In this document: positions 11,555-50,965 of the stretch, one piece after another | Position numbering within the stretch: position 1 is the first letter of the stretch | How the letters are laid out: the number at the start of each line of letters is the position of its first letter | Assembly (NCBI GenBank): GCA_002506485.1 | Contig: DAXQ01000076.1 | Location: 1 to 50,965 of the forward strand | From: Euryarchaeota archaeon UBA136 | GTDB lineage: Archaea; Thermoplasmatota; Poseidoniia; MGIII; CG-Epi1 | Direction of reading: 5' to 3' | Length of the DNA stretch: 50,965 bases | Position numbers and translations under genes: made by a program | The notes under the pieces: model-generated | Database searches by the model: none | What the model was told of the DNA's origin: nothing | The model's input: only the letters and a program-made list of their open reading frames with translations

Positions 11555-11556
11555 GG

Positions 11557-11946: not shown

Positions 11947-12041
11947 ATATCACCTTAGAGGTAGATTTGGCGTCATAAATGCTAATATTTAAAGAATAGT
12001 GCGAAAGTAACAATTAAATACTCGATAAGTGAGTCTATTCT

Positions 12042-13133
12042 ATGGGATTGCTGATTATTGCTATAGACCGGGACAACGATTTGGGTCGAAAGACTGGAAT
12101 CAGAAGTCCAGTTATTGGTAGGGCAGCCAATGTAAAAGCAGCATTGGAACTTGGTTTGGCAGATCCCGAAGAAAGCGATACCAACACTATGTTAGCAGCG
12201 ATTCAAACCTACGACCAATTGTTGAAGGATGATAAGGCAGTTGAAGTAGTAACTATTTGTGGTGATGTTAGGGTAGGAACAAAGTCGGATATGAAGATAG
12301 CCAACATCTTAGACCAAGTTATCGCTAAAACTAAGGCAACCAATGCTATATTGGTAAGTGATGGGGCTGAGGATCTTGAATTGGAACCGATAATCCGCTC
12401 ACGTCTACGCATAGATTCAACCAAGAAGGTTGTAGTACAACAATCTAGACCAATAGAGGATACCTTGTATACAATTGTTCATAAGATGGAGGATCCAAAA
12501 ATTCAGAGGCAATTCATCTTTCCAATAGCTCTGGTCGCGTTTGTTTACGGATTACTGACCTGGTTTGGTCTTTCGGATATTGCTTCAGGCGCTATATGGG
12601 TTGTTTTAGGTGGATATATGTTGGTGAAAGTAGCTGGCTGGGAGGAAGGTTTCAGGAGTTTCTATACCGAACTTCTAACCGTTACAAGTGAGCGTGTTTC
12701 TTTCTATTCTTATGCTTGGCTAATTGCAGCCTTACTGATGATAGTAGGAATTACTAGAGGATTGGACCAGATGCAGGAAGTCTCAGCAGAGGGGCCTCTG
12801 GCTATGGTACTGGCATTTTTGTCTCTAGATGGAGTTCTTCTTCTTCTTCTGGGTGCAGTGGTTGTTATTGAAGTTTCACGAACTGTTGATGGTTATCTGC
12901 GAGATGGTGTTTTCAACATAAACATAGTAAGATTCATCTTTACGGTAGCCAGTATGGGATTGATTACTGCAGGTATAATAGAGATAGTTAATGATCTATT
13001 TGTACAGAATAACTTCGATGCTAATAATGTTCAATATATCCTATCAGGTATCATTTTGTCTTTTATCGGTCTTTTAGTGCATGATAGTATCCGCGAGCGG
13101 GTCGAAGAAAACCCCTTGGCCACTGACGAATAA
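12042..13133 (+). CDS. DUF373 family archaeal membrane protein
   Basis: 363 aa. A soluble N-domain (IAIDRDNDLGRKTGI...DTNTMLAAI) is followed by about 6 TM helices, as I remember for DUF373. Confidence 0.6.
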   Translation: MGLLIIAIDRDNDLGRKTGIRSPVIGRAANVKAALELGLADPEESDTNTMLAAIQTYDQLLKDDKAVEVVTICGDVRVGTKSDMKIANILDQVIAKTKATNAILVSDGAEDLELEPIIRSRLRIDSTKKVVVQQSRPIEDTLYTIVHKMEDPKIQRQFIFPIALVAFVYGLLTWFGLSDIASGAIWVVLGGYMLVKVAGWEEGFRSFYTELLTVTSERVSFYSYAWLIAALLMIVGITRGLDQMQEVSAEGPLAMVLAFLSLDGVLLLLLGAVVVIEVSRTVDGYLRDGVFNINIVRFIFTVASMGLITAGIIEIVNDLFVQNNFDANNVQYILSGIILSFIGLLVHDSIRERVEENPLATDE

Positions 13134-16336: not shown

Positions 16337-16423
16337 GCGGGGGTCGCATAGCCAGGCCAATTGCGCTGGGTTTAGGTCCCAGTCCTTAGTGGTACGTGGG
16401 TTCAAATCCCTCCCCCCGCACCA
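16337..16423 (+). tRNA. tRNA-Leu (anticodon UAG), class II with long variable arm, CCA encoded
   Basis: I folded this by hand. The acceptor is GCGGGGG/CCCCCGC, the anticodon stem is CTGGG/CCCAG with loop TTTAGGT, the T-loop is TTCAAAT, the discriminator is A and CCA is genomic. There is one T-T mismatch in the T-stem. Confidence 0.88.
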
Positions 16424-16570: not shown

Positions 16571-17433
16571 CTTTATTGATTGGAGGTGTCGAGTTAGGTG
16601 GTACAAAGTGCGTTCTGGCTGTCGCTAAAAGTCCAATTGATATACTCTATCGGGCAGTAATCCCTACTGGGAATCCACAAAAGACACTTCAGGGTATTTT
16701 TGATTTTTTTAGTGGTTATGAACTGAATAGGATAGGTATTGGGACCTTTGGTCCAGTCATTCTGGATTCCGAATCAAAGAATTATGGTTTGTTGATATCT
16801 GAAAGTAAGAAAGGTTGGAAAGGAATAAATCTCTTTAAAGAGTTCTCGAGCAATTCCAAAGCAAAAATCAATATTGATACTGATGTTAATGCTGCAGCCA
16901 TTGGGGAGTATAACTATGGGGCTGGACGGTCTTGTCAGGCCTTAATTTACATCACAATTGGTACTGGAATCGGAGGAGGTGTGTTAGTAGATGGAAAGTC
17001 ATATACTGGTAATTTCCATTTGGAAATGGGTCATATACAGGTCCCAAATCCAGATAATTTTGAGGGAGTTTGTAGAATTCACGGAGATTGCTGGGAAGGC
17101 CTTGCAAGCGGCCCTTCAATAGAAGCAAGATGGGGTGTTTCACCCTTGGAACTTCCTGAATCACATCAGGCATGGGAAAAAGAAGCCGAACTGTTAGCTA
17201 GTGGAATAGTGTCCATAATAGCTAATCATTCACCAGACAGAGTCATATTGGGCGGAGGTGTAATGAAACAGAAGCATTTGTTTTCAATGATTCGCTCTAA
17301 AGTTGGTGAAATGTGGAATGATTATACGCCTTTAGCTTCACCATCTGAATTAATTGTTGAGCCTGGTTTAGGTAGTGATTCTGGTATTATTGGAGCTTTG
17401 GTTTTAGGAATTGGTGGGCCCGCCCAGATTTGA
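16567..17433 (+). CDS. ROK family sugar kinase (glucokinase/fructokinase-like)
   Basis: 288 aa. It has the N-terminal GGTK phosphate loop, the ROK motif GTGIGGGV and the Zn site HLEMGH...CRIHGDCWE. Confidence 0.88.
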   Translation: MTLLIGGVELGGTKCVLAVAKSPIDILYRAVIPTGNPQKTLQGIFDFFSGYELNRIGIGTFGPVILDSESKNYGLLISESKKGWKGINLFKEFSSNSKAKINIDTDVNAAAIGEYNYGAGRSCQALIYITIGTGIGGGVLVDGKSYTGNFHLEMGHIQVPNPDNFEGVCRIHGDCWEGLASGPSIEARWGVSPLELPESHQAWEKEAELLASGIVSIIANHSPDRVILGGGVMKQKHLFSMIRSKVGEMWNDYTPLASPSELIVEPGLGSDSGIIGALVLGIGGPAQI

Positions 17434-17487
17434 ACTGGAGTCTATACCACCCCAAGGTACAAGGATGCCAAGCTACCCCACGGGCCC
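17412..17487 (-). tRNA. tRNA-Pro (anticodon GGG), CCA encoded
   Basis: The reverse complement folds by hand. The acceptor is GGGCCCG/CGGGCCC, the anticodon stem is GTACC/GGTAT with loop TTGGGGT, and the T-arm is TCCAG-TTCAAAT-CTGGG. Confidence 0.9.
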
Positions 17488-21216: not shown

Positions 21217-21576
21217 GTGTTGGCACACGAGTATATCCCTATAGGGATTTTTGCACTTATTGCACTCACATTTCCTGTGCTGACCTTCTTTATCGGAAGG
21301 TTCTTTCGGCCTCATAATGACAATGCTCTCAAAAATTCAACTTATGAGTGTGGAGAGGTTCCTAGAGGCGAAGCTCATATTCAGTTTCATTTTCAGTACT
21401 ATATGTTTGCTATACTGTTTGTCATTTTTGATTTAGTAGTAGTTTTTCTAGTCTTGTGGGTTCAAGTATATCTTGATTTGGAGGTATCAGCTAAAGTTGT
21501 AATGTTGTTGTTTCTCCTGCTGACCTTGCTGGGTCTGTGGTACGCTTTTAGAAAAGAGGATGTAATCTGGATATGA
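21217..21576 (+). CDS. nuoA: NADH-quinone oxidoreductase subunit A
   Basis: 119 aa with 3 TM helices and the conserved YECGE loop. Confidence 0.9.
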   Translation: MLAHEYIPIGIFALIALTFPVLTFFIGRFFRPHNDNALKNSTYECGEVPRGEAHIQFHFQYYMFAILFVIFDLVVVFLVLWVQVYLDLEVSAKVVMLLFLLLTLLGLWYAFRKEDVIWI

Positions 21577-22214
21577 GTTCTAAGAAAGTACGTGGCAATC
21601 CTGGTCTTAGAAGAGGTGTGGGTTCTAAAACAACTGATTTAGACGAAATAATGGAAGACCCTCCTGCAGGAGATTGGCTTACTCTTCGTTCAGATCAACT
21701 GTTAGAATGGATAGATAACGCTGTTTACAATGTTGCTGAAACCACTGGAATGCGCGAAGTCGTCAATCGAGTAACTAGACCTATCTTCAATTATGGGCAA
21801 AGATTCTCTCCTCATCCGCTTCACTTTGGTATAATGTGTTGCGCTATTGAGATGGGTCAGGCCTCTGCACCGGACCATGATATAGACCGACTTGGTCTGG
21901 TTTACCGTTCTTCCCCAAGGCAGTGTGATGTGCTAATTGTCAATGGGCCTGTTTGTGAAAAACTGCGCCCTAAATTGAAGACACTTTATGAGCAAATGCC
22001 GGAACCCAAATGGGTTATTGCAATGGGCGAATGTGCAATATCAGGAGGTCCCTACTGGGATTCCTACTCTGTTGTAGCAGGTGCAGATACATTCATCCCT
22101 GTTGATGTATATATTCCAGGATGTCCGGTTAGACCTGAAGCTTTGATGCATGGTTTTCTGACTTTGCAAAAGAAGATCAGAGAAAAGGAACCAGGCATGT
22201 TCTTGAGACGTTAA
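21573..22214 (+). CDS. nuoB: NADH-quinone oxidoreductase subunit B (N2 cluster subunit)
   Basis: 213 aa. The N2 cluster ligands are present: tandem [14 protein letters not shown] and GCPVRPE. There is a 4-nt overlap with nuoA. Confidence 0.95.
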
Positions 22215-22216
22215 GT

Positions 22217-22696
22217 ATGGAAATCAAGGAGTTAATGCAAGAGTTATCAGCCCTTAAGGGAGTTAGCAACGCTTCAATGATTAGGGATAATGTAGTCAAA
22301 TTGGATATTGATAAGAATTCATCCAAAGAGTTTTTTACCAAATTGAGGGATGACTTTGGCTTTGAACATTGTTCATTGATAACTGCAATCGATAATCAAC
22401 CAGAATTTGAACTGGTTTATCATTTTACATCTGTAAACAAGTCCGTTACTGTTGGATCCACTGACATGTCTGTAATGATGGAGGCACATGTATTTCTTGA
22501 ACGGGATACACCTACCATAGAATCAATATCTGATTTATGGGGTGGTGCTAATTGGCATGAGAGAGAAGCTTTTGATCTGATGGGAATTTACTTTGTAGGC
22601 CATCCAGATTTGCGTCGTGTATTGTTACCAGAAGGTTTTGCTGGTCATCCGTTAAGGAAGGATTACGTGTATGAGATACACGAGGAGGAGTGGTAA
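22217..22696 (+). CDS. nuoC: NADH-quinone oxidoreductase subunit C
   Basis: 159 aa. It has the NuoC/30-kDa signature [24 protein letters not shown]. Confidence 0.9.
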
Positions 22697-23790
22697 TGGC
22701 TGAGATGTGGATTAGTATGGGCCCGCAGCATCCAATGACCCATGGTCTCTGGACATTGAAGGTCAAGGTAGATGGTGAAACAATAACTGATGCAGATCCT
22801 GAATTAGGCTATCTCCACCGTTCAGTCGAGAAAATGGGCGAACGTCGTAAATATTTTATGAATACCACTTTGACGGATCGCCTTTGTTATGCTAGTTCTA
22901 CTACTTGGACACACAACTACGTTCTTACAGTCGAAGAATTAATGAATGTTGAAGTACCTGAAAGAGCAAAATACATACGTACGATTATGCTAGAACTTCA
23001 GAGATTAGCTTCTCATTTAATGTGGGCAGGAGCCTATATGCCTGATTTAGGACATATCACTGGAGCCCTTTATTTCTGGAGAGATCGTGAATTGTTCCTG
23101 AACCTTCTGGAGGTTCCAAGTGGAAGTCGTCTTCTCTACAATTATATTCGAATTGGTGGGGTGAAAAGGGACCTGCCAGATGGTTTTGTTGAAAAAACCG
23201 AGAGGGTCTTCAAACTATTTGAAAAACGACTGGATGAATATGCTGATCTTTTTGAAAATTCTAAGATTTTTCGCATGCGCACTGAGGATGTTGGTAATTT
23301 CACTGCAGCGCAGGCCCAGAATCTTGGAATAACTGGCCCCAATATGAGAGGATGTGGGACCAAATTTGATTTGAGAAAAAATGACCCCTATGAGATTTAT
23401 GAAGAAATAGACTGGGCTATTCAAACAAGAGAGGCAGGGCCTGGCTATAGTGATTGTTTCAGCCGATATATGGTTCGTATAGATGAGATGAAGGAATCAA
23501 TTCGGATAATTCGTGATTGTTTCAAAAAGATGCCCAAGGGACCAACCTTGGCCTCAGCTATTCCTGTTCGGGCTCAGGGAGAAGCTTTCCGTAGAACAGA
23601 GGATTCTAGGGGAGAGGCTCTGATGTATGTGGTTGGTGACGGAACAGATCGTCCCTATCGGTGGAAAATCAAAAGCCCGATGTTTACCACAATTTCAGCC
23701 TGCCCTCACTATCTCAAAGGGTACAAGCTTGCAGATATTCCCGCAATCATGGGTAGTATTGATATTTGTATAGGAGAGACTGACAAATGA
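22696..23790 (+). CDS. nuoD: NADH-quinone oxidoreductase subunit D
   Basis: It has GPQHPMTHG and LGYLHRSVEKM and ends IGETDK. I prefer ATG 22696 (TAATG overlap with the nuoC stop, GAGGAGGAG SD 6-14 nt upstream) over the track's GTG at 22690. Confidence 0.95.
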   Translation: MAEMWISMGPQHPMTHGLWTLKVKVDGETITDADPELGYLHRSVEKMGERRKYFMNTTLTDRLCYASSTTWTHNYVLTVEELMNVEVPERAKYIRTIMLELQRLASHLMWAGAYMPDLGHITGALYFWRDRELFLNLLEVPSGSRLLYNYIRIGGVKRDLPDGFVEKTERVFKLFEKRLDEYADLFENSKIFRMRTEDVGNFTAAQAQNLGITGPNMRGCGTKFDLRKNDPYEIYEEIDWAIQTREAGPGYSDCFSRYMVRIDEMKESIRIIRDCFKKMPKGPTLASAIPVRAQGEAFRRTEDSRGEALMYVVGDGTDRPYRWKIKSPMFTTISACPHYLKGYKLADIPAIMGSIDICIGETDK

Positions 23791-25016
23791 CCTTATTCGA
23801 TGCATGTAGAATTATGGCTGAATGGACAGTAAAGGTTCTCATACCGGTCTTTGAGTTTCAAGAAGGTCTTTTTCCTCCTTTCAGTAATCCTGCAGGTTGG
23901 GTCGCGGATTGGTTAGCAACAGAGGGGGGGCTGGATACAATGGCATGGTTTTATGCAGTCAACATCGCTTTTATGATAGGAATGACCAATCTGATTCTGG
24001 TTATCCATCTAGAGAGAAAAGTTGCTGCTAGAATTCAAGATCGTAGAGGCCCAATGCTATCTTTTAGATCTCTTCGTGAGTTAGGCGAGGACTTATCTGG
24101 TCAGGCACCTTCCTGGAAATTTAAGAAGAATTATAGTGGTATAGGGATTTTACAGAATCTAGCTGATGGAATCAAGGCCATTACCAAGGAATTAATTGTT
24201 CCGGCCAAGGCAGATAAATTTCTATTCACTATGGGGCCTATCATATTCATATCTTCATCTGTGTTTTTATTGGCTCTATTTCCTCTGTCAGATAGATTCG
24301 CAGCCTCTTCGGCACCGGCTGGCTTGATGGTGATTATGGCCGCTTTTTCCATAGCACCAATAGGGGTTTTGACCTCAGGTTGGGCGTCCAATAACAAATA
24401 TTCCATGATTGGAGGCATGCGTTCCGCGGCTCAGTTAATGTCGTATGAGATTCCTTTGCTTTTGAGCATGGCGGGTGTGTTTCTGTTAGCAGGGTCCTTT
24501 GATCCGGTTGTAATTGTGGAACAGCAACAAGCCTCTACCTGGTTTTTTGGTTTACCAATGTGGAATTTTATTCCCCAATTCATTGGTTTTGCTGTTTTCA
24601 TGATTTGTATCTTAGCTGAAGTTGAGCGCGTTCCATTCGATTTGCCGGAAGCCGAAGCTGAATTGGTTGAAGGCTGGACAACAGAGTATAGTGGAATTCG
24701 ATATATGTTGTTCCTAGCCGCAGAATATATCAGAGGATTTGCAGGTGCCGCGGTTGCGACTATCTTGTTTTTAGGTGGCTGGGCAGGTCCTTGGCCAGTA
24801 CCTCCCGAAATCTGGTTTTTGCTTAAGGTATATCTAATTCTTTTATTTTGGATTTTTATCCGCTGGTCAGTGCCCCGCATAAGAACCGACCAGATTCTTG
24901 TTCTGGGCTGGAAAAAGTTGCTACCTTTGTCTCTGATAAATCTCCTTATCGTTATATTTATGGTTGAGATTTACCCATATTTCACAGAGATAGTTAATCT
25001 TCCGGAGGTATTCTGA
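23787..25016 (+). CDS. nuoH: NADH-quinone oxidoreductase subunit H (longer than usual, at 409 aa)
   Basis: It has ERKVAARIQDRRGP, LQNLADGIK and EAEAELVEGWTTEYSG. About 45 extra N-terminal residues are present, plus an insert between RRGP and GILQ. Confidence 0.93.
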   Translation: MTLFDACRIMAEWTVKVLIPVFEFQEGLFPPFSNPAGWVADWLATEGGLDTMAWFYAVNIAFMIGMTNLILVIHLERKVAARIQDRRGPMLSFRSLRELGEDLSGQAPSWKFKKNYSGIGILQNLADGIKAITKELIVPAKADKFLFTMGPIIFISSSVFLLALFPLSDRFAASSAPAGLMVIMAAFSIAPIGVLTSGWASNNKYSMIGGMRSAAQLMSYEIPLLLSMAGVFLLAGSFDPVVIVEQQQASTWFFGLPMWNFIPQFIGFAVFMICILAEVERVPFDLPEAEAELVEGWTTEYSGIRYMLFLAAEYIRGFAGAAVATILFLGGWAGPWPVPPEIWFLLKVYLILLFWIFIRWSVPRIRTDQILVLGWKKLLPLSLINLLIVIFMVEIYPYFTEIVNLPEVF

Positions 25017-25792
25017 TGAGTGAAAAAAGTGAACTAGGAATTATGGATATTTTCGTTAATCCAATGAAAGTAACGATGAAGCAATTTTTCAAATCAACAT
25101 TTGGAAAACCAACCACAGTAATGTATCCTTTGGAAAGAAGGGATCCACCACCAACCTACAGAGGAATGAATGCCGTAATCTGGGATCTTTGTATTGGTTG
25201 TGGGATCTGTGCCGAGGTCTGCCCTAACAGATGTTTGAAGATGAAGCCTGTTGAATTATCGGACGATGAACAAGACAGGGCGTGGTACGGTTCACATCTG
25301 GCCAAACGGAAGCATAAACCCGAAAGGCCTGCAATAAATTTCGGCCACTGTATGTTTTGTGGATTCTGTGAGGATTATTGTCCGACCGGTGCTATGACCA
25401 TGACGGATTTTTACGAATTGGCAGATACTAATCGTGAAGGATTGATTTATCCTGCCCGGTCAATGAAAGTCGACCTCGAAGATCTTCCTCAACTTCCCCT
25501 TACGAATTATATGATGGAATCTCCCGTACTGGATGTTGATCCCTGTATTGGATGTAGTAAATGTGTGGACAATTGCCCTACCAATTGTATTATCATGGAT
25601 GTAGGGCCTCAGGATAAGACGCTTAAAAGTGGCAAGGTCCGGAATGTGGAAAATCCATATTTTGACTATACTATTTGTATTGGCTGTTCGACCTGTGTCA
25701 AGGTTTGTCCAGCAGATTGCCTGCATATGGAACCAATAAGCAACTCAAGTTCAAGTGGACTGACTACTGAGGAATCCCCGACCGAGGCCTGA
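25016..25792 (+). CDS. nuoI: NADH-quinone oxidoreductase subunit I with an additional C-terminal 2x[4Fe-4S] ferredoxin domain
   Basis: 258 aa. There are four CxxCxxCxxxCP motifs: CIGCGICAEVCP, CMFCGFCEDYCP, CIGCSKCVDNCP and CIGCSTCVKVCP. The SD GGAGGT lies at 25004-25009, and the start overlaps the nuoH stop as TGATG. Confidence 0.93.
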   Translation: MSEKSELGIMDIFVNPMKVTMKQFFKSTFGKPTTVMYPLERRDPPPTYRGMNAVIWDLCIGCGICAEVCPNRCLKMKPVELSDDEQDRAWYGSHLAKRKHKPERPAINFGHCMFCGFCEDYCPTGAMTMTDFYELADTNREGLIYPARSMKVDLEDLPQLPLTNYMMESPVLDVDPCIGCSKCVDNCPTNCIIMDVGPQDKTLKSGKVRNVENPYFDYTICIGCSTCVKVCPADCLHMEPISNSSSSGLTTEESPTEA

Positions 25793-25796: not shown

Positions 25797-26060
25797 TTGG
25801 ATTTAGCGATTCTCATTTTCTGGGGTCTGGCGAGTTTAATCCTAGCTTCAGCCTGGGCCGTTGTAAATGGGAATGATATTGTTCATGCCGTTGTCTGGTT
25901 GGCAACTGTTTTCTTGTTGACAGCATGCCTATTCATTTTGGCCGACGCTGAATTCTTGGCAGTTATCCAGGTCTTGGTCTATGTGGGTGCTATTTCCGTG
26001 GTCATAATATTTGGAATCATGCTCACTAAGAGAACTCTAAAAGGTGGTGAAGATGTCTAG
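25797..26060 (+). CDS. nuoJ: NADH-quinone oxidoreductase subunit J, N-terminal part (TM1-3; nuoJ1)
   Basis: 87 aa with a TTG start. The NuoJ/ND6 core FLAVIQVLVYVGAISVVIIFGIML is present. Confidence 0.8.
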   Translation: MDLAILIFWGLASLILASAWAVVNGNDIVHAVVWLATVFLLTACLFILADAEFLAVIQVLVYVGAISVVIIFGIMLTKRTLKGGEDV

Positions 26061-26826
26061 TCGGACTATTATCTGGGTGAGGGATGCCTTAGTGATTACC
26101 TTATCGCTTTATATCGTTTTCTCAATTGCCATGGCTCCTTGGAATAATTTGAAGTCTGAGGAACCCTTGTCTATGACCTGTGAAACGGGGTGTGCTCCTG
26201 TGATAAATTACCCAGAGGATGGTTACTATCACCACAAGGATTCAATTGTGTTCGAATGGAATTCAGTCTCGGTGGGGTATCGATTTACAGTTCTAAATAG
26301 TACGGGACATGTCTTCCATGATGAAAATCTTACTGGTATTGCATCATCTACAACCAATAGATTGCCAGTCGGTGATTATACCTCATTCGTTTATTACAAG
26401 GGTATAGTCGGCTCTTTACTGGGAGATAATGAATTTCTTCTTAGTGATGAGGATCATTCTCTGGCTTCTTCTTCAAAAATTACTGTGGTCTGGGCCCCAG
26501 TTGGGATTACTTATGGAATTGAGATTCGAGAGCACAAAGCAACAGAGATACGGATTGTTCATCAAGCCGAGGACTTGGCTCAGACATCATATGAGTTCCA
26601 GGATTTTGATAATGGTAAAACTTATTCTTGGTCTGTCTATGCCGTTGATTCCATGGGTTTTGTCTCGGAGTCGTCCAATGCAAGGGAATTGAATATAGAT
26701 ACAACCAAATTTTTAGCTTATGAACTGTTCAATAATTGGGAGGTTCCTTTCATACTGTTGGGAATCTTGATGGTTGTTGCGTTACAGGCAGGCGTTTTCC
26801 TTGCCAGGGAGGAAACTAATGATTGA
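26053..26826 (+). CDS. nuoJ: NADH-quinone oxidoreductase subunit J, C-terminal part (nuoJ2) with a ~190-aa tandem Ig/Fn3-like insertion
   Basis: ATG 26053 is preceded by AGGTGGTGA (the track ORF starts at GTG 26044). There is an N-terminal TM and a C-terminal TM (WEVPFILLGILMVVALQAGVFLA, which is NuoJ TM5-like). Between them are two beta-rich repeats (IVFEWNSVSVGYRF...GDYTSFVYY and ITVVWAPVGITYGI...KTYSWSVYA). Confidence 0.65.
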   Translation: MSSRTIIWVRDALVITLSLYIVFSIAMAPWNNLKSEEPLSMTCETGCAPVINYPEDGYYHHKDSIVFEWNSVSVGYRFTVLNSTGHVFHDENLTGIASSTTNRLPVGDYTSFVYYKGIVGSLLGDNEFLLSDEDHSLASSSKITVVWAPVGITYGIEIREHKATEIRIVHQAEDLAQTSYEFQDFDNGKTYSWSVYAVDSMGFVSESSNARELNIDTTKFLAYELFNNWEVPFILLGILMVVALQAGVFLAREETND

Positions 26827-27121
26827 TCCAATTCATTTTGTGGTATTTTCTTCAATTCTGATGTTGATCGGGGCTTATGGTGTGATTCGCAACAAGAATG
26901 CAATAGTGGTCCTTATGTCTATTGAAATAATGTTGACCGCAGCAAACATCAATTTTGTTGCATTCTCCAGTTATTATCATGATCTAACTGGCCAGGTAGC
27001 GGTACTGTTTGTTACAACCATAGCCGCGGCAGAAGTGGCAATAGGTTTGGCAATACTTTTGAGCCTTTTCAAACAGAGAGACACCATAGAACTTGATTTG
27101 TTGAATACGTTGAGGTGGTAG
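26819..27121 (+). CDS. nuoK: NADH-quinone oxidoreductase subunit K
   Basis: 100 aa from ATG 26819, with SD GGGAGGAA upstream. It has 3 TM helices and the NuoK pattern GAYGVIRNKNAIVVLMSIEIMLTAAN with conserved Glu. The track's longer ORF (from 26774) overlaps nuoJ2. Confidence 0.9.
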   Translation: MIDPIHFVVFSSILMLIGAYGVIRNKNAIVVLMSIEIMLTAANINFVAFSSYYHDLTGQVAVLFVTTIAAAEVAIGLAILLSLFKQRDTIELDLLNTLRW

Positions 27122-27122: not shown

Positions 27123-29303
27123 TTGAGCGAAAAAGACCCCGACACATCAAATATGGACTTATTGGTAACTATCTTTGGCAGTCTGGCTTTGGCACTAGGG
27201 TTACTATTTTTCTTGGTTCAGGAGGAGGATACTAGTCCAGTCAATGTTGCCTGGTTAATCCCTGTCTTTTCGATTGTTTCATTTGTTCTTATCTTGCTTT
27301 TGGGAAGTTATGATCCCAGAAGAGGCGGTTCAATAGCTGTGATAGGTGTTGGTTTTTCCTCTGTATTTTCATTGGGGGTTGCCTATGATGTCCTGATTAA
27401 TGATGTTACCCGTGGGGGATATATTGAGTCTACGAGAATCTGGTTTGGAGGCCAAACATTCGCGTTTGAATTTGGTACTTACATAGATGGTCTAGCTGGT
27501 TTGCTTCTGTTAGTCGTTGGTTTCGTTTCCTATTTGGTAGTTGTATTTTCTCTAGGGTATATGGTGAAAGAGGGTGACCGCCAAGTAAGATATTTTGCAG
27601 AGATAGCTCTATTTGTGGGCGTGATGTTAGGTTTAGTAGTTGCCAATTCATTTTTATTGATGTTTATATTTTGGGAACTAGTCGGCGTCTGTTCCTATTT
27701 ATTAATTGGATTTTGGTATGAAAAACCATCAGCGGCTTCAGCTGCGAAGAAGGCATTTATCGTTACAAGAGTGGGCGATGTATTTCTGCTTCTTGGCCTT
27801 GTAATCTTATTCAATACTTTTGGTACTCTGAGATATTCGGAGTTGTTCAGTAACCCTGAGCTTCTATCCGAAAATGCTGAGGCAGTAAAGTGGGCGACTT
27901 TGTGTATATTTGGTGGTGCCGTAGGCAAGTCGGCACAATTTCCATTGCATGTTTGGCTTCCAGATGCGATGGAAGGTCCTACTACCGTTTCAGCACTTAT
28001 TCATGCGGCAACTATGGTGAAGGCTGGCGTTTTCCTAGTTGCTCGATCATATCCTCTGATTGTTCACAGTCCTGATACTGCGATATATATTGCTGTTACG
28101 GGAGGTGTTACAGCATTCATAGCTGCTAGTATGGCTATGGTGATGTATGATATCAAGAGAGTTCTGGCCTATTCAACGATTTCTCAATTAGGGTACATGT
28201 TCCTTGGATTGGGTGCGGGTGCTTGGGCTGTCTGGCATGCAACCGAAAATGGGCTGGAAGTCCATGCGCAGGGTTACACTGCTGGTTTATTCCATTTGAT
28301 GAATCATGCGTTTTTCAAGGCATTACTATTCTTGGGTTCAGGTGCAGTGATACATGCAGTCCATACACAGGATATGAGAGAGATGGGAGGATTACGCAAG
28401 GCTATGCCAATCACTTCTACAGCTATGGGTCTTGGTGTCTTGTCTATTGCAGGATTACCTTTCTTTTCTGGATTCTGGTCAAAAGATGAAATTCTTGAGG
28501 CAGTTCACCATAATTGGGATGCTGAAGGGATTTTTGGGGCTTTGTGGTGGTTGGGATTGCTTACTGCAGCTATGACGGCTTTCTATATGACTAGATTGTG
28601 GATGATGACCTTCAGTGGCCCTCCTTCCCATGAGGTAGAAGAGGTAATTCCTTCTGACGATCATTCGGATTCAGGCAATTGGGAGATACTCAAGAAAGAA
28701 GTCAAGATACAGGCACATGAGGCTCCACGGGTCATGACCATACCTCTGATGATTTTAGCCTTTTTAGCTGTCTTTTCAGGATTCGTGGTCTTTCTTGGAG
28801 ATGGTTTTGGTTCGGTGGTCTTCTATGGCGCACATCATTCTTCAGAGGGACCTATTCAATGGGGTCTTCTTGATCATATTTTATTATCGACCTTAACTCA
28901 CTTATCGGTCCTTGTGGGTCTTACAGGAGTAATTCTTGGTTATCTCTTCTACAAGAGAGGGGACGATGGCCAGACTCCATTCTCGACGGCTTTCGTATCT
29001 GATAGCGTTGTCACAAGCAATTTGCATACATTCTTGTCAAATCGCATGTACATGGCGAGATTATTTGATTGGTTTGGTATGAGAACTTGGGATACCTTGG
29101 CCATGGTCTGTGACTGGTTTGATCGTAAGATTATTGACGGGATTGTCAATGGAATTGCTTCCATTACACAAATCTTAAGTGGAGAGGTGAGAAAGTTGAC
29201 TTCAGGTTTTACGGGACATTATGCCTCTCTTACTATAGGTGGCCTTGGTGCTTTGGTAGTAGTTACCCGTGTGGTATTTCCATTGATGGGGTGGTCGTTA
29301 TGA
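27123..29303 (+). CDS. nuoL: NADH-quinone oxidoreductase subunit L
   Basis: 726 aa with a TTG start 6 nt after GAGGTGGT. It has the antiporter-like core (WELVGVCSYLLIGFW, PLHVWLPDAMEGPTTVSALIHAATMV) and a long C-terminal extension typical of NuoL. Confidence 0.93.
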   Translation: MSEKDPDTSNMDLLVTIFGSLALALGLLFFLVQEEDTSPVNVAWLIPVFSIVSFVLILLLGSYDPRRGGSIAVIGVGFSSVFSLGVAYDVLINDVTRGGYIESTRIWFGGQTFAFEFGTYIDGLAGLLLLVVGFVSYLVVVFSLGYMVKEGDRQVRYFAEIALFVGVMLGLVVANSFLLMFIFWELVGVCSYLLIGFWYEKPSAASAAKKAFIVTRVGDVFLLLGLVILFNTFGTLRYSELFSNPELLSENAEAVKWATLCIFGGAVGKSAQFPLHVWLPDAMEGPTTVSALIHAATMVKAGVFLVARSYPLIVHSPDTAIYIAVTGGVTAFIAASMAMVMYDIKRVLAYSTISQLGYMFLGLGAGAWAVWHATENGLEVHAQGYTAGLFHLMNHAFFKALLFLGSGAVIHAVHTQDMREMGGLRKAMPITSTAMGLGVLSIAGLPFFSGFWSKDEILEAVHHNWDAEGIFGALWWLGLLTAAMTAFYMTRLWMMTFSGPPSHEVEEVIPSDDHSDSGNWEILKKEVKIQAHEAPRVMTIPLMILAFLAVFSGFVVFLGDGFGSVVFYGAHHSSEGPIQWGLLDHILLSTLTHLSVLVGLTGVILGYLFYKRGDDGQTPFSTAFVSDSVVTSNLHTFLSNRMYMARLFDWFGMRTWDTLAMVCDWFDRKIIDGIVNGIASITQILSGEVRKLTSGFTGHYASLTIGGLGALVVVTRVVFPLMGWSL

Positions 29304-31168
29304 GATGGTTCTTATTTCTCCTTCTGGTTGTTGCACTTGTTCCTGCTGCGTCAGCTGAAAATCACACAGTGATTGTTACCCAGGCTGATGATTCCAGCTC
29401 ATACTTTTTTGATCCTGAGGTATTGACGGTAAACATTGGAGATACAGTGGAATTTGTTTGGGGCAATGGTTCTCACAATGTAGCTCAGGTTTCCGATTCA
29501 GAATCAAAGACCTATGGTTCAGGGTTCTATTCAGGTGTGCCAGAAGTGGGTGGCAATTGGGTACTGCCAGCTGAGTATACAATGCAGGATGGAACTTTGT
29601 ATTACGTTTGTCAGCCTCATGCGCTGATGGGTATGAGTGGATCAATAATTGTAGGTACTGGAACTCCTCCTCTTCCTGATATTGCAATGGAATTTGGTGA
29701 CTTCCCATGGCTTTCCTATCTTCTGGTATTTCCCCTTATCGGTTCTCTTTGGATTCTTGGTTTCAGAAACAACCCCTCTGCTCCAAGGATAATTGCTCTG
29801 TTCACTACATTATTCACGCTTGGACTATCCATTATAATATTTGTAAAGGCTGGTTCAGGAAGTGGTTTCAGATTAATGGAGGAATATGTATGGGCACCTA
29901 AACTGGGAGTGTCTCTACTACTGGGAGTTGATGGTCTCAGCTCACCGATGGTTCTGTTAACGGGAATCATTACCCCTCTCGCGGTCTTATTTGCTTGGCA
30001 TGAAAAGGAAAAACCAGCCTTATTCTTTGCTTTACTATTGGTAATGCAGACGGCCCTATTCGGTGTTTTCATCACTCTGGATTATTTTGTGTTCTATATC
30101 TTCTGGGAAGTGGTGCTGATTCCAATGTTCTTTTTGATTGCTATTTGGGGTGGCGATAACAAACGATATGCTTCAATCAAGTTCATTATTTACACATTCA
30201 CTGCTTCGGTTGTGATGTTAGTTGGATTTATGGCCCTTTATTTTGAAGCGGGCGTCAATTCCTTTTCGATGATTGAAATTGCCGAGGCTAACGCAGGTTT
30301 CAACAGGGACTTCCAGATCTGGGTTTTTGCGGCATTGTTCATCGGTTTCGCGGTCAAGATACCTTCAGTTCCTTGGCATACTTGGTTACCAGATGCCCAT
30401 GTCGAGGCTCCAACTGCGGGGTCAATTCTTTTAGCTGGAGTCATGCTGAAAATGGGACTTTATGGTTTAATGCGGGCAGCAATCCCGGTTCTACCTTTAG
30501 GTGCCGAGTATTTTGTACCAATAATGGTCGTTTTAGCTATTGTTTCTATATTGTATGGAGCAGCCTTAAGTCTGGGTCAGGAGGACCTGAAAAAATTAGT
30601 AGCATATTCTAGTGTTTCCCATATGGGTGTTGCACTGTTAGGAGTTGCAACGATGACTGAGCTGGGTTTTGCCGGTGCGGTTTTTATGATGTTTGCACAT
30701 GGTATTCTTAGCCCAGCAATGTTCATGGTTGCGGGAGTAATGTTGCATCAAGTTGGCACTCGTGATATTCCAAAACTTGGAGGTCTAGCTGGCTATCAAC
30801 CTACTACTGCTGGAGTTTTTGTTGTTATTTTCTTGGGCAGTCTTGGTCTTCCAGGTATGGCTGTTTTTGTTGCAGAATTGGCAGTTTTTATTGCTTTTTT
30901 CCAGTCTCATGGTTATTGGTTGATACTTCCAATTTTTGGAATGGTTCTGACAGCGGGTTATCATTTATGGGCTTTACAGCGCTCTTTGTTTGGTCCCGAC
31001 AGTGAGCAGATAGAAATGAATCAAGTTCACGAAGCTCCATGGTATGAGTTTTATCCTTTATTGGTAATCGTTATCCTTGCCGCTTTTTTCGGTATTTTCC
31101 CAAGTTATTTGATGGATCCTATAACTGTTGCATGTTATGATATTCTGGCTTTTATGGGGGAAGTATAG
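29300..31168 (+). CDS. nuoM: cupredoxin (type-1 copper) domain fused to NADH-quinone oxidoreductase subunit M
   Basis: ATG 29300 overlaps the nuoL stop as ATGA. A signal peptide (MRWFLFLLLVVALVPAASA) is followed by a cupredoxin with ligands in GSHNV and YYVCQPHALMGM. A Pro-rich linker leads to a complete NuoM (WHTWLPDAHVEAPTAGSILLAGVMLK) with no intervening stop codon. Confidence 0.9.
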   Translation: MRWFLFLLLVVALVPAASAENHTVIVTQADDSSSYFFDPEVLTVNIGDTVEFVWGNGSHNVAQVSDSESKTYGSGFYSGVPEVGGNWVLPAEYTMQDGTLYYVCQPHALMGMSGSIIVGTGTPPLPDIAMEFGDFPWLSYLLVFPLIGSLWILGFRNNPSAPRIIALFTTLFTLGLSIIIFVKAGSGSGFRLMEEYVWAPKLGVSLLLGVDGLSSPMVLLTGIITPLAVLFAWHEKEKPALFFALLLVMQTALFGVFITLDYFVFYIFWEVVLIPMFFLIAIWGGDNKRYASIKFIIYTFTASVVMLVGFMALYFEAGVNSFSMIEIAEANAGFNRDFQIWVFAALFIGFAVKIPSVPWHTWLPDAHVEAPTAGSILLAGVMLKMGLYGLMRAAIPVLPLGAEYFVPIMVVLAIVSILYGAALSLGQEDLKKLVAYSSVSHMGVALLGVATMTELGFAGAVFMMFAHGILSPAMFMVAGVMLHQVGTRDIPKLGGLAGYQPTTAGVFVVIFLGSLGLPGMAVFVAELAVFIAFFQSHGYWLILPIFGMVLTAGYHLWALQRSLFGPDSEQIEMNQVHEAPWYEFYPLLVIVILAAFFGIFPSYLMDPITVACYDILAFMGEV

Positions 31169-32661
31169 TGGATAGTTCTCTTCTTTTCTTGCCTGAACTA
31201 TTGTTGGTAGCCAGTATCATGGCAATCCCGGCTTTGTATATTGCTACTGAGAATAACAAATCTTATTCGATTTGCGCTAATATGACTTTGGCATTGTCAT
31301 TCTTGTTGCTTATATTATTCTGGTTTTATCCGGATGAAGTTTCATTTGAAAAGAATTCGTCAGTTTATATTATTTATAGCCATTTTAAATTGGATACCTT
31401 CTCACAATTATTCAAAATAATATTTGTATTGACAGCTTTGACGGTTTCTGTTCTGAGTGGTTCTTATTTTGAGGAAGATGAGCCTCATCAGGCAGAGTAC
31501 TATACTCTACTTCTTTCTAGTACTTTAGGTATGATGTTGGTTGCTTCTGCGACTGATTTCTTGACACTTTTCTTAGGAATAGAGATATCGGCTTTCAGCA
31601 GTTATGCTATGGTTGCTTTCAGAAAACAGGATGATAAGTCTACGGAAGCAGGGGCCAAATACTTTCTGATAGGTGCTTTTTCTTCGGCACTTACACTTTA
31701 CGGAATATCCTTGCTTTATGCCCTTACTGGTTCGATTACTTTCGAAGGTATGCGTTCATTTTTTACAGGTCTTAATAATGAAGTTGTTTCCGGGAATTTT
31801 GATGAGGTCATTTTTATTTCTAGTTTGTTCATACTTGCTGGTTTAGGCTTCAAGATCGCAGTTGTTCCCTTTCACGCCTGGGCACCTGATGTGTACCAGG
31901 GCGCTCCAACTCCTGTAACGACCCTTCTTGCAGCTGGAAGTAAGGCTATGGGGTTCGTAGCCTTGTTCAGAGTATTCTTGTTCACAATGGAAGCTGTATC
32001 TGATGAGTGGAAGTTAATTCTTGGAATTATAGCTCTTGCTTCAATGACAATTGGTAATCTGGCAGCTATTACTCAGGATGATATTGGTCGGATGCTAGCT
32101 TATTCCTCAATTGCTCAGGCAGGGTACATTCTGATCGCAGTTCCTGCTCTTACCGATGACGCAGTCTCCGGGGCCATTGCCCATACCATGGTTCATGCAT
32201 TCATGAAAGGGGGAGCTTTTGTCATAGTTGCAGGAGTAGGTGCAGCCGGGTTGGGATATAGCCTGGATTCTTACAAAGGTCTGGCTGCACGTTCACAATT
32301 ATTGGCATTGTCCATGACTGTTTGTCTTTTGTCCCTAGTTGGAATCCCTCCGTTTGCCGGATTCATTAGTAAATTTCTGCTATTCTATGGGACTTTGCAA
32401 GCTGGTCTTTCGGGAGATACTTGGATTATTGCATTGGTAATTGCCGGTGTTCTGAATTCTGCACTTTCACTGTATTATTATCTTAAAGTTATTCGGTTCA
32501 TGTATCTTTATGATGCTGTCGGTTCCAAGGATATTGAGTTTAGCAATGCGGTTCGTTATATTTCGTTCCTAACTGTGCTTTTCTTGGCTATTATTCTGCC
32601 CTTGTTCTGGCAGTCCCTCTTTGAAATCTGCAAGGAGGCTACTGTAGCTCTGATGACATGA
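31168..32661 (+). CDS. nuoN: NADH-quinone oxidoreductase subunit N
   Basis: 497 aa with a GTG start overlapping the nuoM stop by 1 nt. The antiporter-like core is present (PFHAWAPDVYQGAPTPVTTLLAAGSK). Confidence 0.9.
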   Translation: MDSSLLFLPELLLVASIMAIPALYIATENNKSYSICANMTLALSFLLLILFWFYPDEVSFEKNSSVYIIYSHFKLDTFSQLFKIIFVLTALTVSVLSGSYFEEDEPHQAEYYTLLLSSTLGMMLVASATDFLTLFLGIEISAFSSYAMVAFRKQDDKSTEAGAKYFLIGAFSSALTLYGISLLYALTGSITFEGMRSFFTGLNNEVVSGNFDEVIFISSLFILAGLGFKIAVVPFHAWAPDVYQGAPTPVTTLLAAGSKAMGFVALFRVFLFTMEAVSDEWKLILGIIALASMTIGNLAAITQDDIGRMLAYSSIAQAGYILIAVPALTDDAVSGAIAHTMVHAFMKGGAFVIVAGVGAAGLGYSLDSYKGLAARSQLLALSMTVCLLSLVGIPPFAGFISKFLLFYGTLQAGLSGDTWIIALVIAGVLNSALSLYYYLKVIRFMYLYDAVGSKDIEFSNAVRYISFLTVLFLAIILPLFWQSLFEICKEATVALMT

Positions 32662-32918
32662 TTGACAAGGATAATATTCAATATAGACAATTTAGTAAAT
32701 TGTGGGCAGGGGAGACACCTAAAGGCGTCAACATCACCAAGAGAGATGTTTTCCGTTCCAAGATGAAAAATTCATGTCAGCAGGAAGGGATTGAATTTAG
32801 TGAAATAAATGCGTTTAGAATTTTCTCGGGAGAGATTAAAGAATTAGGTTCAGACACTCAGAAGGTAGGAGAGATTAAGGTAACTAAACCACCTAGAAGA
32901 CATCTAAGAGGAATTTAA
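32658..32918 (+). CDS. hypothetical soluble 86-aa protein translationally coupled to nuoN
   Basis: It overlaps the nuoN stop as ATGA and fills the whole space to the convergent gene. It is basic with no TM helix, and I recognise no family. Confidence 0.35.
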   Translation: MIDKDNIQYRQFSKLWAGETPKGVNITKRDVFRSKMKNSCQQEGIEFSEINAFRIFSGEIKELGSDTQKVGEIKVTKPPRRHLRGI

Positions 32919-33892
32919 TTTCGGTCACTTACAATTAGTTCATTTGCAAAGGATATAGGTACCTGTTCTAGTAGAATTTTGGTTGATGAATCTGGAACCT
33001 CTTCCAAAAATTTCCGGGACATTTCTTGCCATGGGGCAATCAATTCTTCAAAGATATTCTGAGCATCGCTTGTTTTCACGTTCTTTATAATTTCACCAGC
33101 ATTTCCAGTCTCTATAAATTTATCAATAGATGGTTTGTACCCGCTATAACGAGTTAATCTTGTGACTGGTAAAGTTGGTATTCCAAGGGCTAAGTCTCCT
33201 ACAGGTGTCTTGGTAATTAATGAATTCATAAGATCAAGATAGTCATCAGTTATCTGATATATAATTCCTACAGTTTCCCCGAATTTATACATTGGTAATG
33301 CCAAGTCGGTTTGAGGCGAGATTAATGCCCCTAATTCAGCAGCTGTACTGTATAGTGCTCCAGTCTTTCTTTTTATTCTATGAAGATACACAGATTCACT
33401 GTAATTTTCTTTATCTGTAAAGTCAGCAATCGCCCCTTCAGTCAAATTCCTGGCACATATTGCTAGAGATTTTCCTGTGGCTAATGAGATGGCCCCATGT
33501 AGGGACCCCGTTGCAACCATCAGATCCGCGACTAAAATGGCTGTCCTTGGGCCCAGTTCTTTCCACAATGATGGAGCCTCACGCCTAAATTTATCTCCAT
33601 CTAACCAATCATCATGTATCAAGGTTCCACAATGAATCAATTCCAAGGCCATTCCACATTCGAATGCCAAATGGGCATCGCCACCTAAACAATCGGATAC
33701 TAAACGGCAAAGTACGGGTCGTAATTGCTTTCCTTGCCCTACTCCTTTTTCTATTAGAGGTGCTATATCCTTTGATTCCTTGCTGATTTCTCTTTTCAGA
33801 TGTCTTTGGAACTCAACTCTAACTTCTTCGAAATAATCGTTTAAATTCTGCGAGACTGTCAGATTTTCCTGTAATTTTATTGTTTCTTTCAT
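32915..33892 (-). CDS. trans-polyprenyl diphosphate synthase (GGPP or longer-chain)
   Basis: 325 aa. It has the first Asp-rich motif LIHDDWLDGD and the second ITDDYLD. Confidence 0.88.
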   Translation of the reverse strand: MKETIKLQENLTVSQNLNDYFEEVRVEFQRHLKREISKESKDIAPLIEKGVGQGKQLRPVLCRLVSDCLGGDAHLAFECGMALELIHCGTLIHDDWLDGDKFRREAPSLWKELGPRTAILVADLMVATGSLHGAISLATGKSLAICARNLTEGAIADFTDKENYSESVYLHRIKRKTGALYSTAAELGALISPQTDLALPMYKFGETVGIIYQITDDYLDLMNSLITKTPVGDLALGIPTLPVTRLTRYSGYKPSIDKFIETGNAGEIIKNVKTSDAQNIFEELIAPWQEMSRKFLEEVPDSSTKILLEQVPISFANELIVSDRN

Positions 33893-33894
33893 AG

Positions 33895-35172
33895 TTAAAT
33901 GTATTCAATACCAATTATCAGTAATGTCCCAGTTAGGGCATGTATACCAATGGTTCCCCAGTTTGCACCGGCCAATTCTCGGGTATTATAGCTGTTTATT
34001 ACTTGATATGAATAATAGAGAGCCACAGGTAATCCTAGTAATGAAAGAAGGGCCCCTTCCTCTACGATATTGTATTCGAATAATGCATATATTGAGGAGA
34101 ATGCTGCAAGCATTAGGATAAGGTACCCCCAACTGGATTTTTCTAGTCCTAGAACTACAACCAAGTGATGTTTTCCTGCAATTTCGTCTGATTTGCTATC
34201 AGGAAACTGATTAATCCAAAGTATTGCTGTCGTTAGTATTCCAAATGGTATTCCAAATAGAAATGCCTCCCATGAATGTATTCCAGACATTGCATAGATA
34301 GCTCCCATAGTCATCAGTGGGCCATAATTCAAACCAATCAGTAATTCTCCAATTCCTTTACGTGCTACTAATCTTAGAGGATATCCCATATAGAAATATC
34401 CCGAAAACGCTCCCGCAAGTCCGTAGTAAAGTAATTCCACTTTATTATCAAGCATAATTACTATTCCTGATAAACCAGCTAAAGCTAGAAAAGAAGTTGC
34501 CAAACGGAAAAGTTGTTTCTCAGTTATCAATCCCAGTTCGATAGCTCTGCTGCCTCCTGAGAGTTGTAAGAAATAGTCGTTGTTGATCTGATCAGTTCCA
34601 CTGGTCCAGTCAAAATAATCATTGTATGTATTGGCAGCCAGATGTAGAAAAGATCCACCCATAAACACCAATCCAAAGGTTAACCAATCCATCTCGATAA
34701 GTCCTTTCTGAAGACCCCAGACCACGCTAGCAATTATTGGAATCCAGGTGGCACTAAGGAAAGGCAATCTTGTTATGGCAACGATTGAGATAAATCGGGT
34801 GAGCAAGGATGTTTTGGGCATAGTGTCCATGGGAGAAACATTCTTCAGTTCTTTTGTGCGCCCACAGTAACCGATATGCATTCCGTTTTTCATTGTTGCC
34901 GTACATGTAAATTCAGCAGCAAATTGCGTTCCATCTTTTCTTATGAAGGTGGTCTTTGTTGAATATCCTTCCCTATTCTTTCTTGCTTCTTTTAACCACT
35001 TAGCAACATGGCCTAGCACCACCATACCAGGTGAGAATAGAGAAACTCTCTTCTTACCTATGATTTCATTGGCCGTGTACCCAAACATTATTTCGGCGCT
35101 TTTGTTGAAGGTTTCTATTCTACCCTCTATATCACAGGTTATTACACTGGTTACGTCATCTGATTCTGACAT
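33895..35172 (-). CDS. PAS domain fused to a UbiA-superfamily prenyltransferase (MenA-like, 1,4-dihydroxy-2-naphthoate polyprenyltransferase)
   Basis: The N-terminal about 110 aa are PAS-like (ITCDIEGRIETFNKSAEIMFGYTANEIIGKKRVSLFSP...KDGTQF). They are followed by about 8 TM helices with NTYNDYFDWTSGTD (the MenA-type NxxxDxxxD region). The track ORF starts at TTG 35226. I prefer ATG 35170-35172 (MSESDD...), which lies downstream of a TATA-like TTTATATAC. Confidence 0.8.
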   Translation of the reverse strand: MSESDDVTSVITCDIEGRIETFNKSAEIMFGYTANEIIGKKRVSLFSPGMVVLGHVAKWLKEARKNREGYSTKTTFIRKDGTQFAAEFTCTATMKNGMHIGYCGRTKELKNVSPMDTMPKTSLLTRFISIVAITRLPFLSATWIPIIASVVWGLQKGLIEMDWLTFGLVFMGGSFLHLAANTYNDYFDWTSGTDQINNDYFLQLSGGSRAIELGLITEKQLFRLATSFLALAGLSGIVIMLDNKVELLYYGLAGAFSGYFYMGYPLRLVARKGIGELLIGLNYGPLMTMGAIYAMSGIHSWEAFLFGIPFGILTTAILWINQFPDSKSDEIAGKHHLVVVLGLEKSSWGYLILMLAAFSSIYALFEYNIVEEGALLSLLGLPVALYYSYQVINSYNTRELAGANWGTIGIHALTGTLLIIGIEYI

Positions 35173-35251
35173 TAGGTACCTTTTAATTTCCTTATTCAAC
35201 TTCATTAGGTATAGTATATAAAACAATCATTATTATTGCCCAATTCAATGA

Positions 35252-46489: not shown

Positions 46490-46566
46490 GGGTCCGTGGT
46501 CTAGTTGGTTATGACGTCGCCTTGACATGGCGGAGATCCCCGGTTCGAATCCGGGCGGACCCACCA
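46490..46566 (+). tRNA. tRNA-Val (anticodon GAC), CCA encoded
   Basis: I folded this by hand. The acceptor is GGGTCCG/CGGACCC, the anticodon stem is TCGCC/GGCGG with loop TTGACAT, and the T-arm is CCCGG-TTCGAAT-CCGGG. Confidence 0.92.
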
Positions 46567-50848: not shown

Positions 50849-50965
50849 AGGAGGTGATCCATCCGCAGGTTCCCCTACGGATACCTTGTTACGACTTAAC
50901 CCTCCTCGCTGAACCCAGATTCGAGCGTGTCAGAAGACAAACCCTCGTCCAGACCCAACTAAGGT
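50849..50965 (-). rRNA. rrs: 16S rRNA, 3'-terminal 117 nt (the gene continues beyond the window)
   Basis: The reverse complement ends ...AAGTCGTAACAAGGTATCCGTAGGGGAACCTGCGGATGGATCACCTCCT. This is the universal helix-45 region and anti-Shine-Dalgarno tail. Confidence 0.95.

Follow-up and report, generated by a model that had tools for sequence, protein, structure and literature searches.

We have analyzed a stretch of DNA from Euryarchaeota archaeon UBA136 (GenBank assembly GCA_002506485.1, contig DAXQ01000076.1), referred to below as the window and 50,965 nucleotides (nt) in full length, and found that the membrane subunit NuoJ of complex I is encoded there in two halves, the second of which, NuoJ2, carries an insert of about 185 residues in the loop between its two transmembrane (TM) helices that is predicted to fold as a pair of fibronectin type III (Fn3) domains. 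Judging by sequence, we identify the system as NuoJ (ND6), one of the 11 subunits that make up complex I (nuoABCDHIJ1J2KLMN) in an archaeon of Marine Group III type, class Poseidoniia, and we hold this identity, together with the architecture of a split NuoJ with a tandem Fn3 insert, with high confidence. That the Fn3 pair acts as a scaffold or brace is put forward tentatively, at somewhat less than even odds. Architecture and brace function taken together form the best explanation for the data, and a single figure of about 0.6 blends our confidence in the two.

The nuo operon is located on the plus strand, and as assigned with Pfam and NCBIfam the gene order in the window is nuoB-C-D-H-I-J1-J2-K-L-M-N, which recurs at related loci with nuoA in front. 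The first half-gene, nuoJ1 (25797-26060, +, TTG to TAG), encodes the N-terminal half of NuoJ with TM1-3 in 87 amino acids, as evidenced by Pfam, profile alignment with hhalign and hydropathy, and its product ends in KRTLKGGEDV. The second, nuoJ2 (26053-26826, +, ATG to TGA), encodes the C-terminal half including the insert in 257 amino acids and is followed by nuoK (26819-27121, +, ATG start; Pfam Oxidored_q2, E 2.6e-27). The two half-genes overlap by 8 nt (26053-26060, ATGTCTAG), with nuoJ2 in frame +1 relative to nuoJ1, and the overlap of nuoJ2 with nuoK also amounts to 8 nt (ATGATTGA). A Shine-Dalgarno (SD)-like sequence, AGGTGGTGA, was read directly upstream of the nuoJ2 start (26042-26050, +); it can pair in part with the 3' terminus of the organism's own 16S rRNA (...GGATCACCTCCT), as read from an archaeal 16S rRNA gene of which the window, ending within it, contains the 3' part (50849-50965, -) and which confirms the archaeal origin of the DNA. 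Note that an alternative in-frame start for nuoJ2, a GTG, is found at 26044. An earlier reading of this DNA, made from the letters and their open reading frames (the sequence-only reading), had described a split NuoJ whose second half starts at ATG 26053 with an SD of its own and an 8-nt overlap, and each of these elements is present at these positions. Among the loci compared below, the 8-nt overlap of the half-genes recurs in L001, L002-L004 and L007, and in L005 it is 11 nt. We propose that NuoJ is made as two translationally coupled polypeptides, with the break placed in the cytoplasmic TM3-TM4 loop.

The assignment of J1 to NuoJ is straightforward. Its sequence matches Pfam Oxidored_q3 (PF00499) over positions 1-62 of 146 with 76.2 bits (cutoff 33.2, E 2.8e-21), aligns with positions 3-83 of bacterial NuoJ (hhalign E 1.3e-27) and contains three hydrophobic segments according to hydropathy analysis. 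The layout of J2 comprises TM4, the hydrophilic insert of ~185 residues, a conserved surface helix and TM5. TM4 (residues ~4-29, 26062-26139, +), with R4 and R10 near its start, is marked by a hydropathy peak at residues 14-22 and a predicted helix at residues 4-26. The C-terminal region (26701-26823, +), delimited with hhalign and the NuoJ model of NCBIfam, consists of the pre-TM5 surface helix (TTKFLAYELF), TM5 and an acidic C-terminal tail (AREETND); the C-terminal helix reads WEVPFILLGILMVVALQAGVFLA, and the pattern QAGVFLA.EE is invariant in this region of the 71 orthologues that make up our J2 alignment. The C-terminus of J2 matches positions 103-145 of PF00499 with 16.1 bits, which alone is under the Pfam cutoff, as well as NCBIfam NuoJ (E 1.7e-5) and the last 38 positions of bacterial NuoJ (hhalign E 2.5e-5). 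When J1 was joined to J2 minus residues ~41-204, the resulting insert-deleted construct aligned end to end with residues 12-166 of Paracoccus NuoJ (8qby_J, E 1e-13), pairing the two TM4 helices, and it also matched cyanobacterial NdhG (6hum_G, E 3e-13), with the deletion point falling within the short TM4-TM5 loop of the solved proteins. The insert thus sits in the TM4-TM5 loop, and the TM5-like helix of NuoJ that the sequence-only reading had placed at the end of J2 is borne out by homology in Pfam, NCBIfam, hhalign and the alignment to 8qby_J.

For the insert itself, AlphaFold2 was run on the 71-sequence J2 alignment and yielded a model with a mean predicted local distance difference test (pLDDT) score of 77.5, in which a helix at residues 4-26 is followed by two seven-stranded β-sandwiches (~50-118 and ~128-215, pLDDT mostly 82-91), a short helix at 218-227 and a further helix at 230-253. 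Domain 1, residues ~48-124 (26194-26424, +), is assigned from the strands at 50-118, with pLDDT of 74-91, and from Foldseek; domain 2, residues ~125-216 (26425-26700, +), is assigned from the strands at 128-215, with pLDDT of 82-90, from a profile match in the PDB and from a weak Pfam match. A Foldseek search against the PDB returned tandem FnIII pairs at a probability of 1.0 and E ~3e-5 (titin I110-I111, the cytokine-binding region of gp130 and integrin beta4), and a profile search of PDB sequences returned titin FnIII with E 3e-7. A direct Pfam match to domain 1 was not found in J2, and a precomputed match to PF00041 is present in some of its orthologues. Comparison of domain 1 (48-124) with domain 2 (125-216) by hhalign shows them to be homologues (E 1.5e-7, probability 94%), and W69, Y76 and Y109 of domain 1 are invariant in the 71 sequences. 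In the predicted structure the insert is thus folded as two Fn3-type β-sandwiches. The tandem FnIII units of titin I110-I111, gp130 and integrin beta4 share fold and tandem arrangement with it, at 10-15% identity and a root mean square deviation of ~20 Å over both domains, and this poor superposition indicates an inter-domain geometry unlike that of linear FnIII arrays. Unlike FnIII domains of the cell surface and matrix, moreover, the pair described here lies between two TM helices of an energy-converting enzyme. The sequence-only reading had proposed a tandem Ig/Fn3-like insert of ~190 residues with two similar β-type repeats; hhalign pairs exactly the motifs that it quoted, and AlphaFold2 and Foldseek agree on an insert of ~185 residues whose fold is specifically Fn3-like.

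Just outside TM4 there is a CxxxC pair, C43-E-T-G-C47 (26179-26193, +), conserved in at least 90% of the 71 sequences. In two orthologues of 385-387 amino acids, P0023 and P0026, the inter-domain linker is lengthened by ~130 strongly acidic residues, among them a CDGCTG motif and a DDNENGVYDSGE stretch, and no Pfam match was obtained for the 130-residue addition of P0026. Smaller additions occur at the same linker in P0019, P0020 and P0030, and P0029 instead has 31 extra residues ahead of the Cys pair. The additions thus fall mostly at the inter-domain linker, which fits a pair that folds back and leaves its distal tip free. Searched against a library of 1.84 billion representatives, the J2 family profile matched only about four full-length clusters at 50% identity, and it also matched thousands of giant multi-Fn3 surface proteins. 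The latter were considered as donors of the insert and rejected, as pairwise identities of 18-27% mark them as generic Fn3 matches; at least one of them looks bacterial (type IX secretion system sorting domain, SusE).

We further studied the distribution of the split and the insert. A scan of one genome per GTDB species, using the J1 alignment and two peptide patterns, retrieved 38 archaeal loci of Marine Group III type, the informative names among which are mostly those of Marine Group III (CG-Epi1, CG-Bathy1, single-cell genomes and ALOHA MGIII bins). All 38 have an insert-bearing J2, of 238-274 amino acids where complete, and independent contigs show the same arrangement of J1 (87-98 amino acids), J2 and K, with overlaps of 8 or 11 nt. 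Split and insert are kept down to 30% J2 identity and across G+C (GC) contents from 35 to 64%, several metagenome contigs included; the extreme case is L005, a divergent lineage with 64% GC and a J2 that is 30% identical. The relatives thus keep the insert within J2 itself, in the same gene, and orthologues with a short loop next to an unrelated source of the insert, the situation that would have spoken against the sequence-only reading, were not encountered. J2 homologues number 93, at 36-100% identity and mostly 250-290 amino acids long, and all 93 are unnamed or termed 'hypothetical protein' in public annotation. The J1 of the window is 95% identical to the closest scanned locus and 70-87% identical to named Marine Group III genomes, which puts the organism in this clade of Poseidoniia. 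The next-best J1 matches, at no more than 53% identity, come from bacteria and one Hydrothermarchaeota genome, and these outside relatives have an ordinary unsplit NuoJ of 161-175 amino acids where the start is clear. A separate search for J1 homologues returned relatives at >82% identity only and no outgroup, and a search with the most divergent J2, P0114, gave two clusters and no bridge to other lineages. A Marine Group II locus was not retrieved by the scan, which rests on two peptide patterns and is uninformative on this point either way. As a side observation, two loci labelled 'Candidatus Thalassarchaeaceae' (a Marine Group II family), L008 and L035, group by J1 and J2 with genomes named as Marine Group III, and L035 is close to ALOHA 'MGIII-9'; public taxon labels in the Marine Group III-type clade look inconsistent.

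As synonymous sites were saturated for most pairs that involve the window, the ratio of nonsynonymous to synonymous substitution rates (dN/dS) was determined from all pairs with dS between 0.1 and 1.0 (38 pairs). The median dN/dS is 0.20 for the ectodomain formed by the insert, with similar values in both Fn3 domains, and 0.08 for TM4 and the C-terminal region (217-257) combined. The ectodomain is under purifying selection.

The location of the insert relative to the membrane can be deduced from solved structures. The TM3-TM4 loop of NuoJ lies on the cytoplasmic side, where it meets loops of NuoA and NuoH at the quinone site; the TM4-TM5 loop runs over NuoK (PMC9035099). In the mycobacterial enzyme, the C-terminus of NuoJ reaches as far as the peripheral arm (PMC10068793). 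With the TM3-TM4 loop and the C-terminus on the cytoplasmic side, the TM4-TM5 loop is placed on the outer side. The ends assigned to the cytoplasm are flanked by Lys and Arg residues, KRTLK in the J1 tail and R4 and R10 at the head of J2, in line with the positive charge expected of cytoplasmic ends. The J2 loop of 186 residues is acidic in all 71 orthologues, with a median net charge of -8.7 per 100 amino acids, and the cupredoxin ectodomain of NuoM is similarly acidic (-10.7 per 100); of the cytoplasmic proteins encoded in the window, the majority have a net charge close to zero, NuoC (-8.8) being the exception. From homology to solved complex I and from this charge distribution we infer that the Fn3 pair would be located outside the cell, in agreement with the exterior position that the sequence-only reading had suggested. 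The other outcome that would have spoken against that reading, an insert predicted in the cytoplasm and devoid of an Ig-like fold, did not arise.

For the assembly of this arrangement we suggest the following course. With its positively charged N-terminus and hydrophobic helix, TM4 probably acts as a signal-anchor for the export of J2. Some 185 residues would then be exported and fold as an out-and-back hairpin of two homologous Fn3 domains, and the chain would return via the conserved surface helix and TM5, so that the C-terminus would end up on the cytoplasmic side. As the ends of an Fn3 domain lie at opposite poles, a pair of them can run out and back, and this fits the placement of the pair within a loop. 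Because the TM4-TM5 loop runs over NuoK, the pair is expected on the outer face, over NuoJ and NuoK, a part of the enzyme that would be exposed to sea water, and there it would most likely represent a built-in, non-catalytic accessory module, be it a brace or a protein-protein docking surface.

Several observations weigh against this interpretation. The pLDDT is just 55-64 at J2 residues 31-60, and the match of Pfam fn3 (PF00041) to domain 2 (139-208), at 22.7 bits and E 1.1e-4, remains under the cutoff of 25. An hhalign comparison of J2 residues 1-40 with bacterial NuoJ showed no sequence similarity to the canonical TM4, a helix that is poorly conserved across the NuoJ family generally; TM4 is assigned from position, hydropathy, predicted helix and global alignment only and is not recognizable by sequence. 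The single TM helix ahead of the insert that the sequence-only reading had claimed is hence present as a hydrophobic helix at residues ~4-29, with an identity as TM4 that is positional. The same reading had pointed out a Cys pair (MTCETGC), which is found as C43/C47 in the main clade but is missing in the divergent P0093, P0095, P0097 and P0114, so that a disulfide is not essential. The conservation of one N-x-T sequon in domain 1, N92-L-T94 (26326-26334, +), in 64 of 71 orthologues speaks for an outside location, but a test of that location by overall sequon enrichment was negative, with 2.9 sequons observed against 2.45 expected. Purifying selection, finally, could merely reflect the demand that the insert fold without harm to an essential enzyme, and it is no proof of function.

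The last point leads to the most serious alternative, according to which a permissive outer loop acquired an Fn3 tandem on a single occasion, and the tandem has persisted as a tolerated passenger because it folds independently, without serving any function itself. NuoJ homologues differ in their TM4-TM5 loop, which also takes further lineage-specific insertions, the invariant residues of the insert are mostly the Trp, Tyr and Gly of an Fn3 core, and the ectodomain evolves faster than the TM parts (dN/dS 0.20 vs 0.08), all of which would be expected of such a passenger. Nevertheless, the insert is kept in 38 of 38 species genomes, over the full range of J2 identity and GC content given above, with no loss or decay seen, and dN/dS is well below 1 in both domains. 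Streamlined marine genomes seldom retain ~560 nt of useless coding sequence, and such a retention is unlikely here. We therefore regard a passenger role as improbable, at roughly one chance in five.

In a second alternative, an external redox partner would dock onto the Fn3 pair, which would hold the blue-copper domain of NuoM, or the next respiratory complex, beside complex I in an outer-face supercomplex. Fn3 domains are typical protein-binding modules, and the NuoM of the same operon (29291-31168, +; 625 amino acids) begins with a signal-peptide-like segment, MVVMRWFLFLLLVVALVPAASA, followed by a cupredoxin of the plastocyanin/azurin type (Pfam Copper-bind, residues 32-121, 31 bits, above the cutoff), a Pro-rich linker and the antiporter-like core. 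All four type-1 copper ligands, H62, C107, H110 and M115, are conserved in 97-100% of 34 orthologues. The cupredoxin, which should face outward, accompanies the J2 insert in nearly all loci that extend far enough for it to be seen. L005, however, keeps the Fn3 pair of J2 while its NuoM ectodomain differs and gives no cupredoxin match, so that the pairing is not obligatory. Furthermore, NuoN separates NuoM from NuoJ in known structures, and a contact between the two outer domains would need a long reach. On balance we judge a docking platform still less probable than a passenger. The same low standing applies to the wider proposal that complex I is the hub of an externally scaffolded respiratory assembly, with the Fn3 pair of NuoJ2 and the blue-copper domain of NuoM as an outer-face platform. 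If true, such a platform would tie the proton pump to a copper-protein electron relay and a terminal oxidase, or to the cell envelope, and core complex I subunits of prokaryotes would have gained partner-binding ectodomains independently of the mitochondrial accessory subunits.

Although the split requires merely a +1 frame change at 26053-26060 and J2 is called 'hypothetical' in public annotations, an artefact, in which a sequencing frameshift has broken a single nuoJ or mis-assembly has put the gene of an unrelated surface protein between nuoJ and nuoK, is effectively refuted by the comparative data, as more than 40 independent assemblies, produced in different studies, have the same split with its own ATG and an overlap of 8 or 11 nt, J2 itself carries the TM5 of NuoJ, and split J genes are known in Methanosarcinaceae (PMC3017947).

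A comparison with known systems places the split, conserved NuoJ with a putative brace in its loop, the reading that we prefer, in perspective. Canonical NuoJ, ND6 or NdhG (PF00499; 8qby_J, 6hum_G) has the same five TM helices in the same order. A conserved VYxGA region within TM3 and a surface helix ahead of TM5 are common to it and J1/J2, as is TM5 itself, and its gene likewise lies between nuoI and nuoK. The canonical subunit is, however, a single polypeptide of ~160-200 amino acids with a TM4-TM5 loop of ~25 residues, whereas here the protein is split and the loop of ~185 residues is modelled as two Fn3 domains. In Methanosarcinaceae the operon reads fpoABCDHIJJKLMNO (PMC3017947), and this split FpoJ/NuoJ and the NCBIfam models PRK06433 (profiles of 82-96 amino acids) and PRK06439 (72 amino acids) likewise represent two adjacent J genes. 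The matches of our proteins to the short-J models of NCBIfam are partial, with 63.6 against a cutoff of 95 for J1 (NF005025) and 18.7 against 121 for J2 (NF005030). These scores are far below the cutoffs, so that J1 and J2 constitute a different lineage of split J and not those equivalogs; with 72 positions, the short second-half model (PRK06439) also has no folded loop domain, unlike J2.

Lineage-specific additions to NuoJ have a precedent in the mycobacterial protein (8e9g), whose C-terminal extension is proposed to stabilize the complex (PMC10068793). That extension is C-terminal and cytoplasmic and reaches the peripheral arm, while the J2 insert is internal, presumably outside and a pair of β-sandwiches. 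With mitochondrial accessory subunits of the intermembrane space the likeness is a functional analogy only. NDUFA8, NDUFS5 and NDUFB7 form folded, disulfide-containing mass on the P side of the membrane arm that is thought to be stabilizing; they are separate polypeptides with helical CHCH folds and of eukaryotic origin, and they are not homologous to the J2 insert. The sequence-only reading had stated that splits of J are known in archaea and that such an insertion is not, and both parts hold: the former is exemplified by Methanosarcinaceae, and our literature search found no description of a folded domain in the outer loop of NuoJ, nor of a Marine Group III complex I.

Other subunits of the operon also deviate from the usual pattern. 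The fusion of NuoM to a cupredoxin, on which our literature search found no paper, may match or exceed the J2 insert in interest. In L005 the nuoM gene (11036-13057, +; 673 amino acids) encodes a different N-terminal ectodomain of ~170 residues after the signal-like segment, with a GCNCHG motif, for which neither a Pfam match nor similarity to the cupredoxin was found; it seems that lineages have exchanged the outer domain of NuoM, with the Fn3 pair of J2 retained. NuoI (25016-25792, +) has 258 amino acids and four 4Fe-4S motifs, with the usual core followed by an extra C-terminal two-cluster ferredoxin domain (~165-245), and this long form is conserved in relatives (258 and 253 amino acids). 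As the operon is without nuoEFG, the extra domain may belong to the electron-input side. NuoB (21573-22214, +; 213 amino acids) has an N-terminal extension of ~85 residues, with Oxidored_q6 starting at residue 89. NuoL (27123-29303, +; 726 amino acids), aligned lengthwise to cyanobacterial NdhF (6hum_F), showed no large insertion comparable to that of J2. The remaining genes of the operon are nuoC (22217-22696), nuoD (22690-23790), nuoH (23787-25016) and nuoN (31168-32661), all on the plus strand. Directly 3' of the operon, the minus strand encodes (32915-35226) a polyprenyl synthetase together with a prenyltransferase of the UbiA family whose N-terminus carries a PAS domain, a pair that could represent quinone or lipid prenylation genes with a sensor domain. 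The window further contains genes for tRNA-Leu (16337-16423), tRNA-Pro (17412-17487) and tRNA-Val (46490-46566).

The Fn3 insert of NuoJ2 is a conserved decoration that, as far as our literature search shows, has not been described before for complex I. To our knowledge, the core membrane subunits of this enzyme are among the most conservative proteins known, and the folded mass on the outer (P) side that we are aware of has so far been a feature of the accessory subunits of eukaryotic complex I. At a practical level, annotations everywhere give the second half of NuoJ as 'hypothetical', and these genomes can therefore look as if they were without a complete NuoJ; the assignment of J2 corrects this annotation, and its insert can serve to mark genomes of the Marine Group III type as a clade. 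Throughout this clade of ocean archaea, which are abundant and uncultured, two Fn3 domains would be built into the outer loop of NuoJ, in the same enzyme that has a copper protein fused to NuoM and an extra ferredoxin domain on NuoI, and nature thus provides a case in which the effect of external mass on the membrane arm can be addressed.

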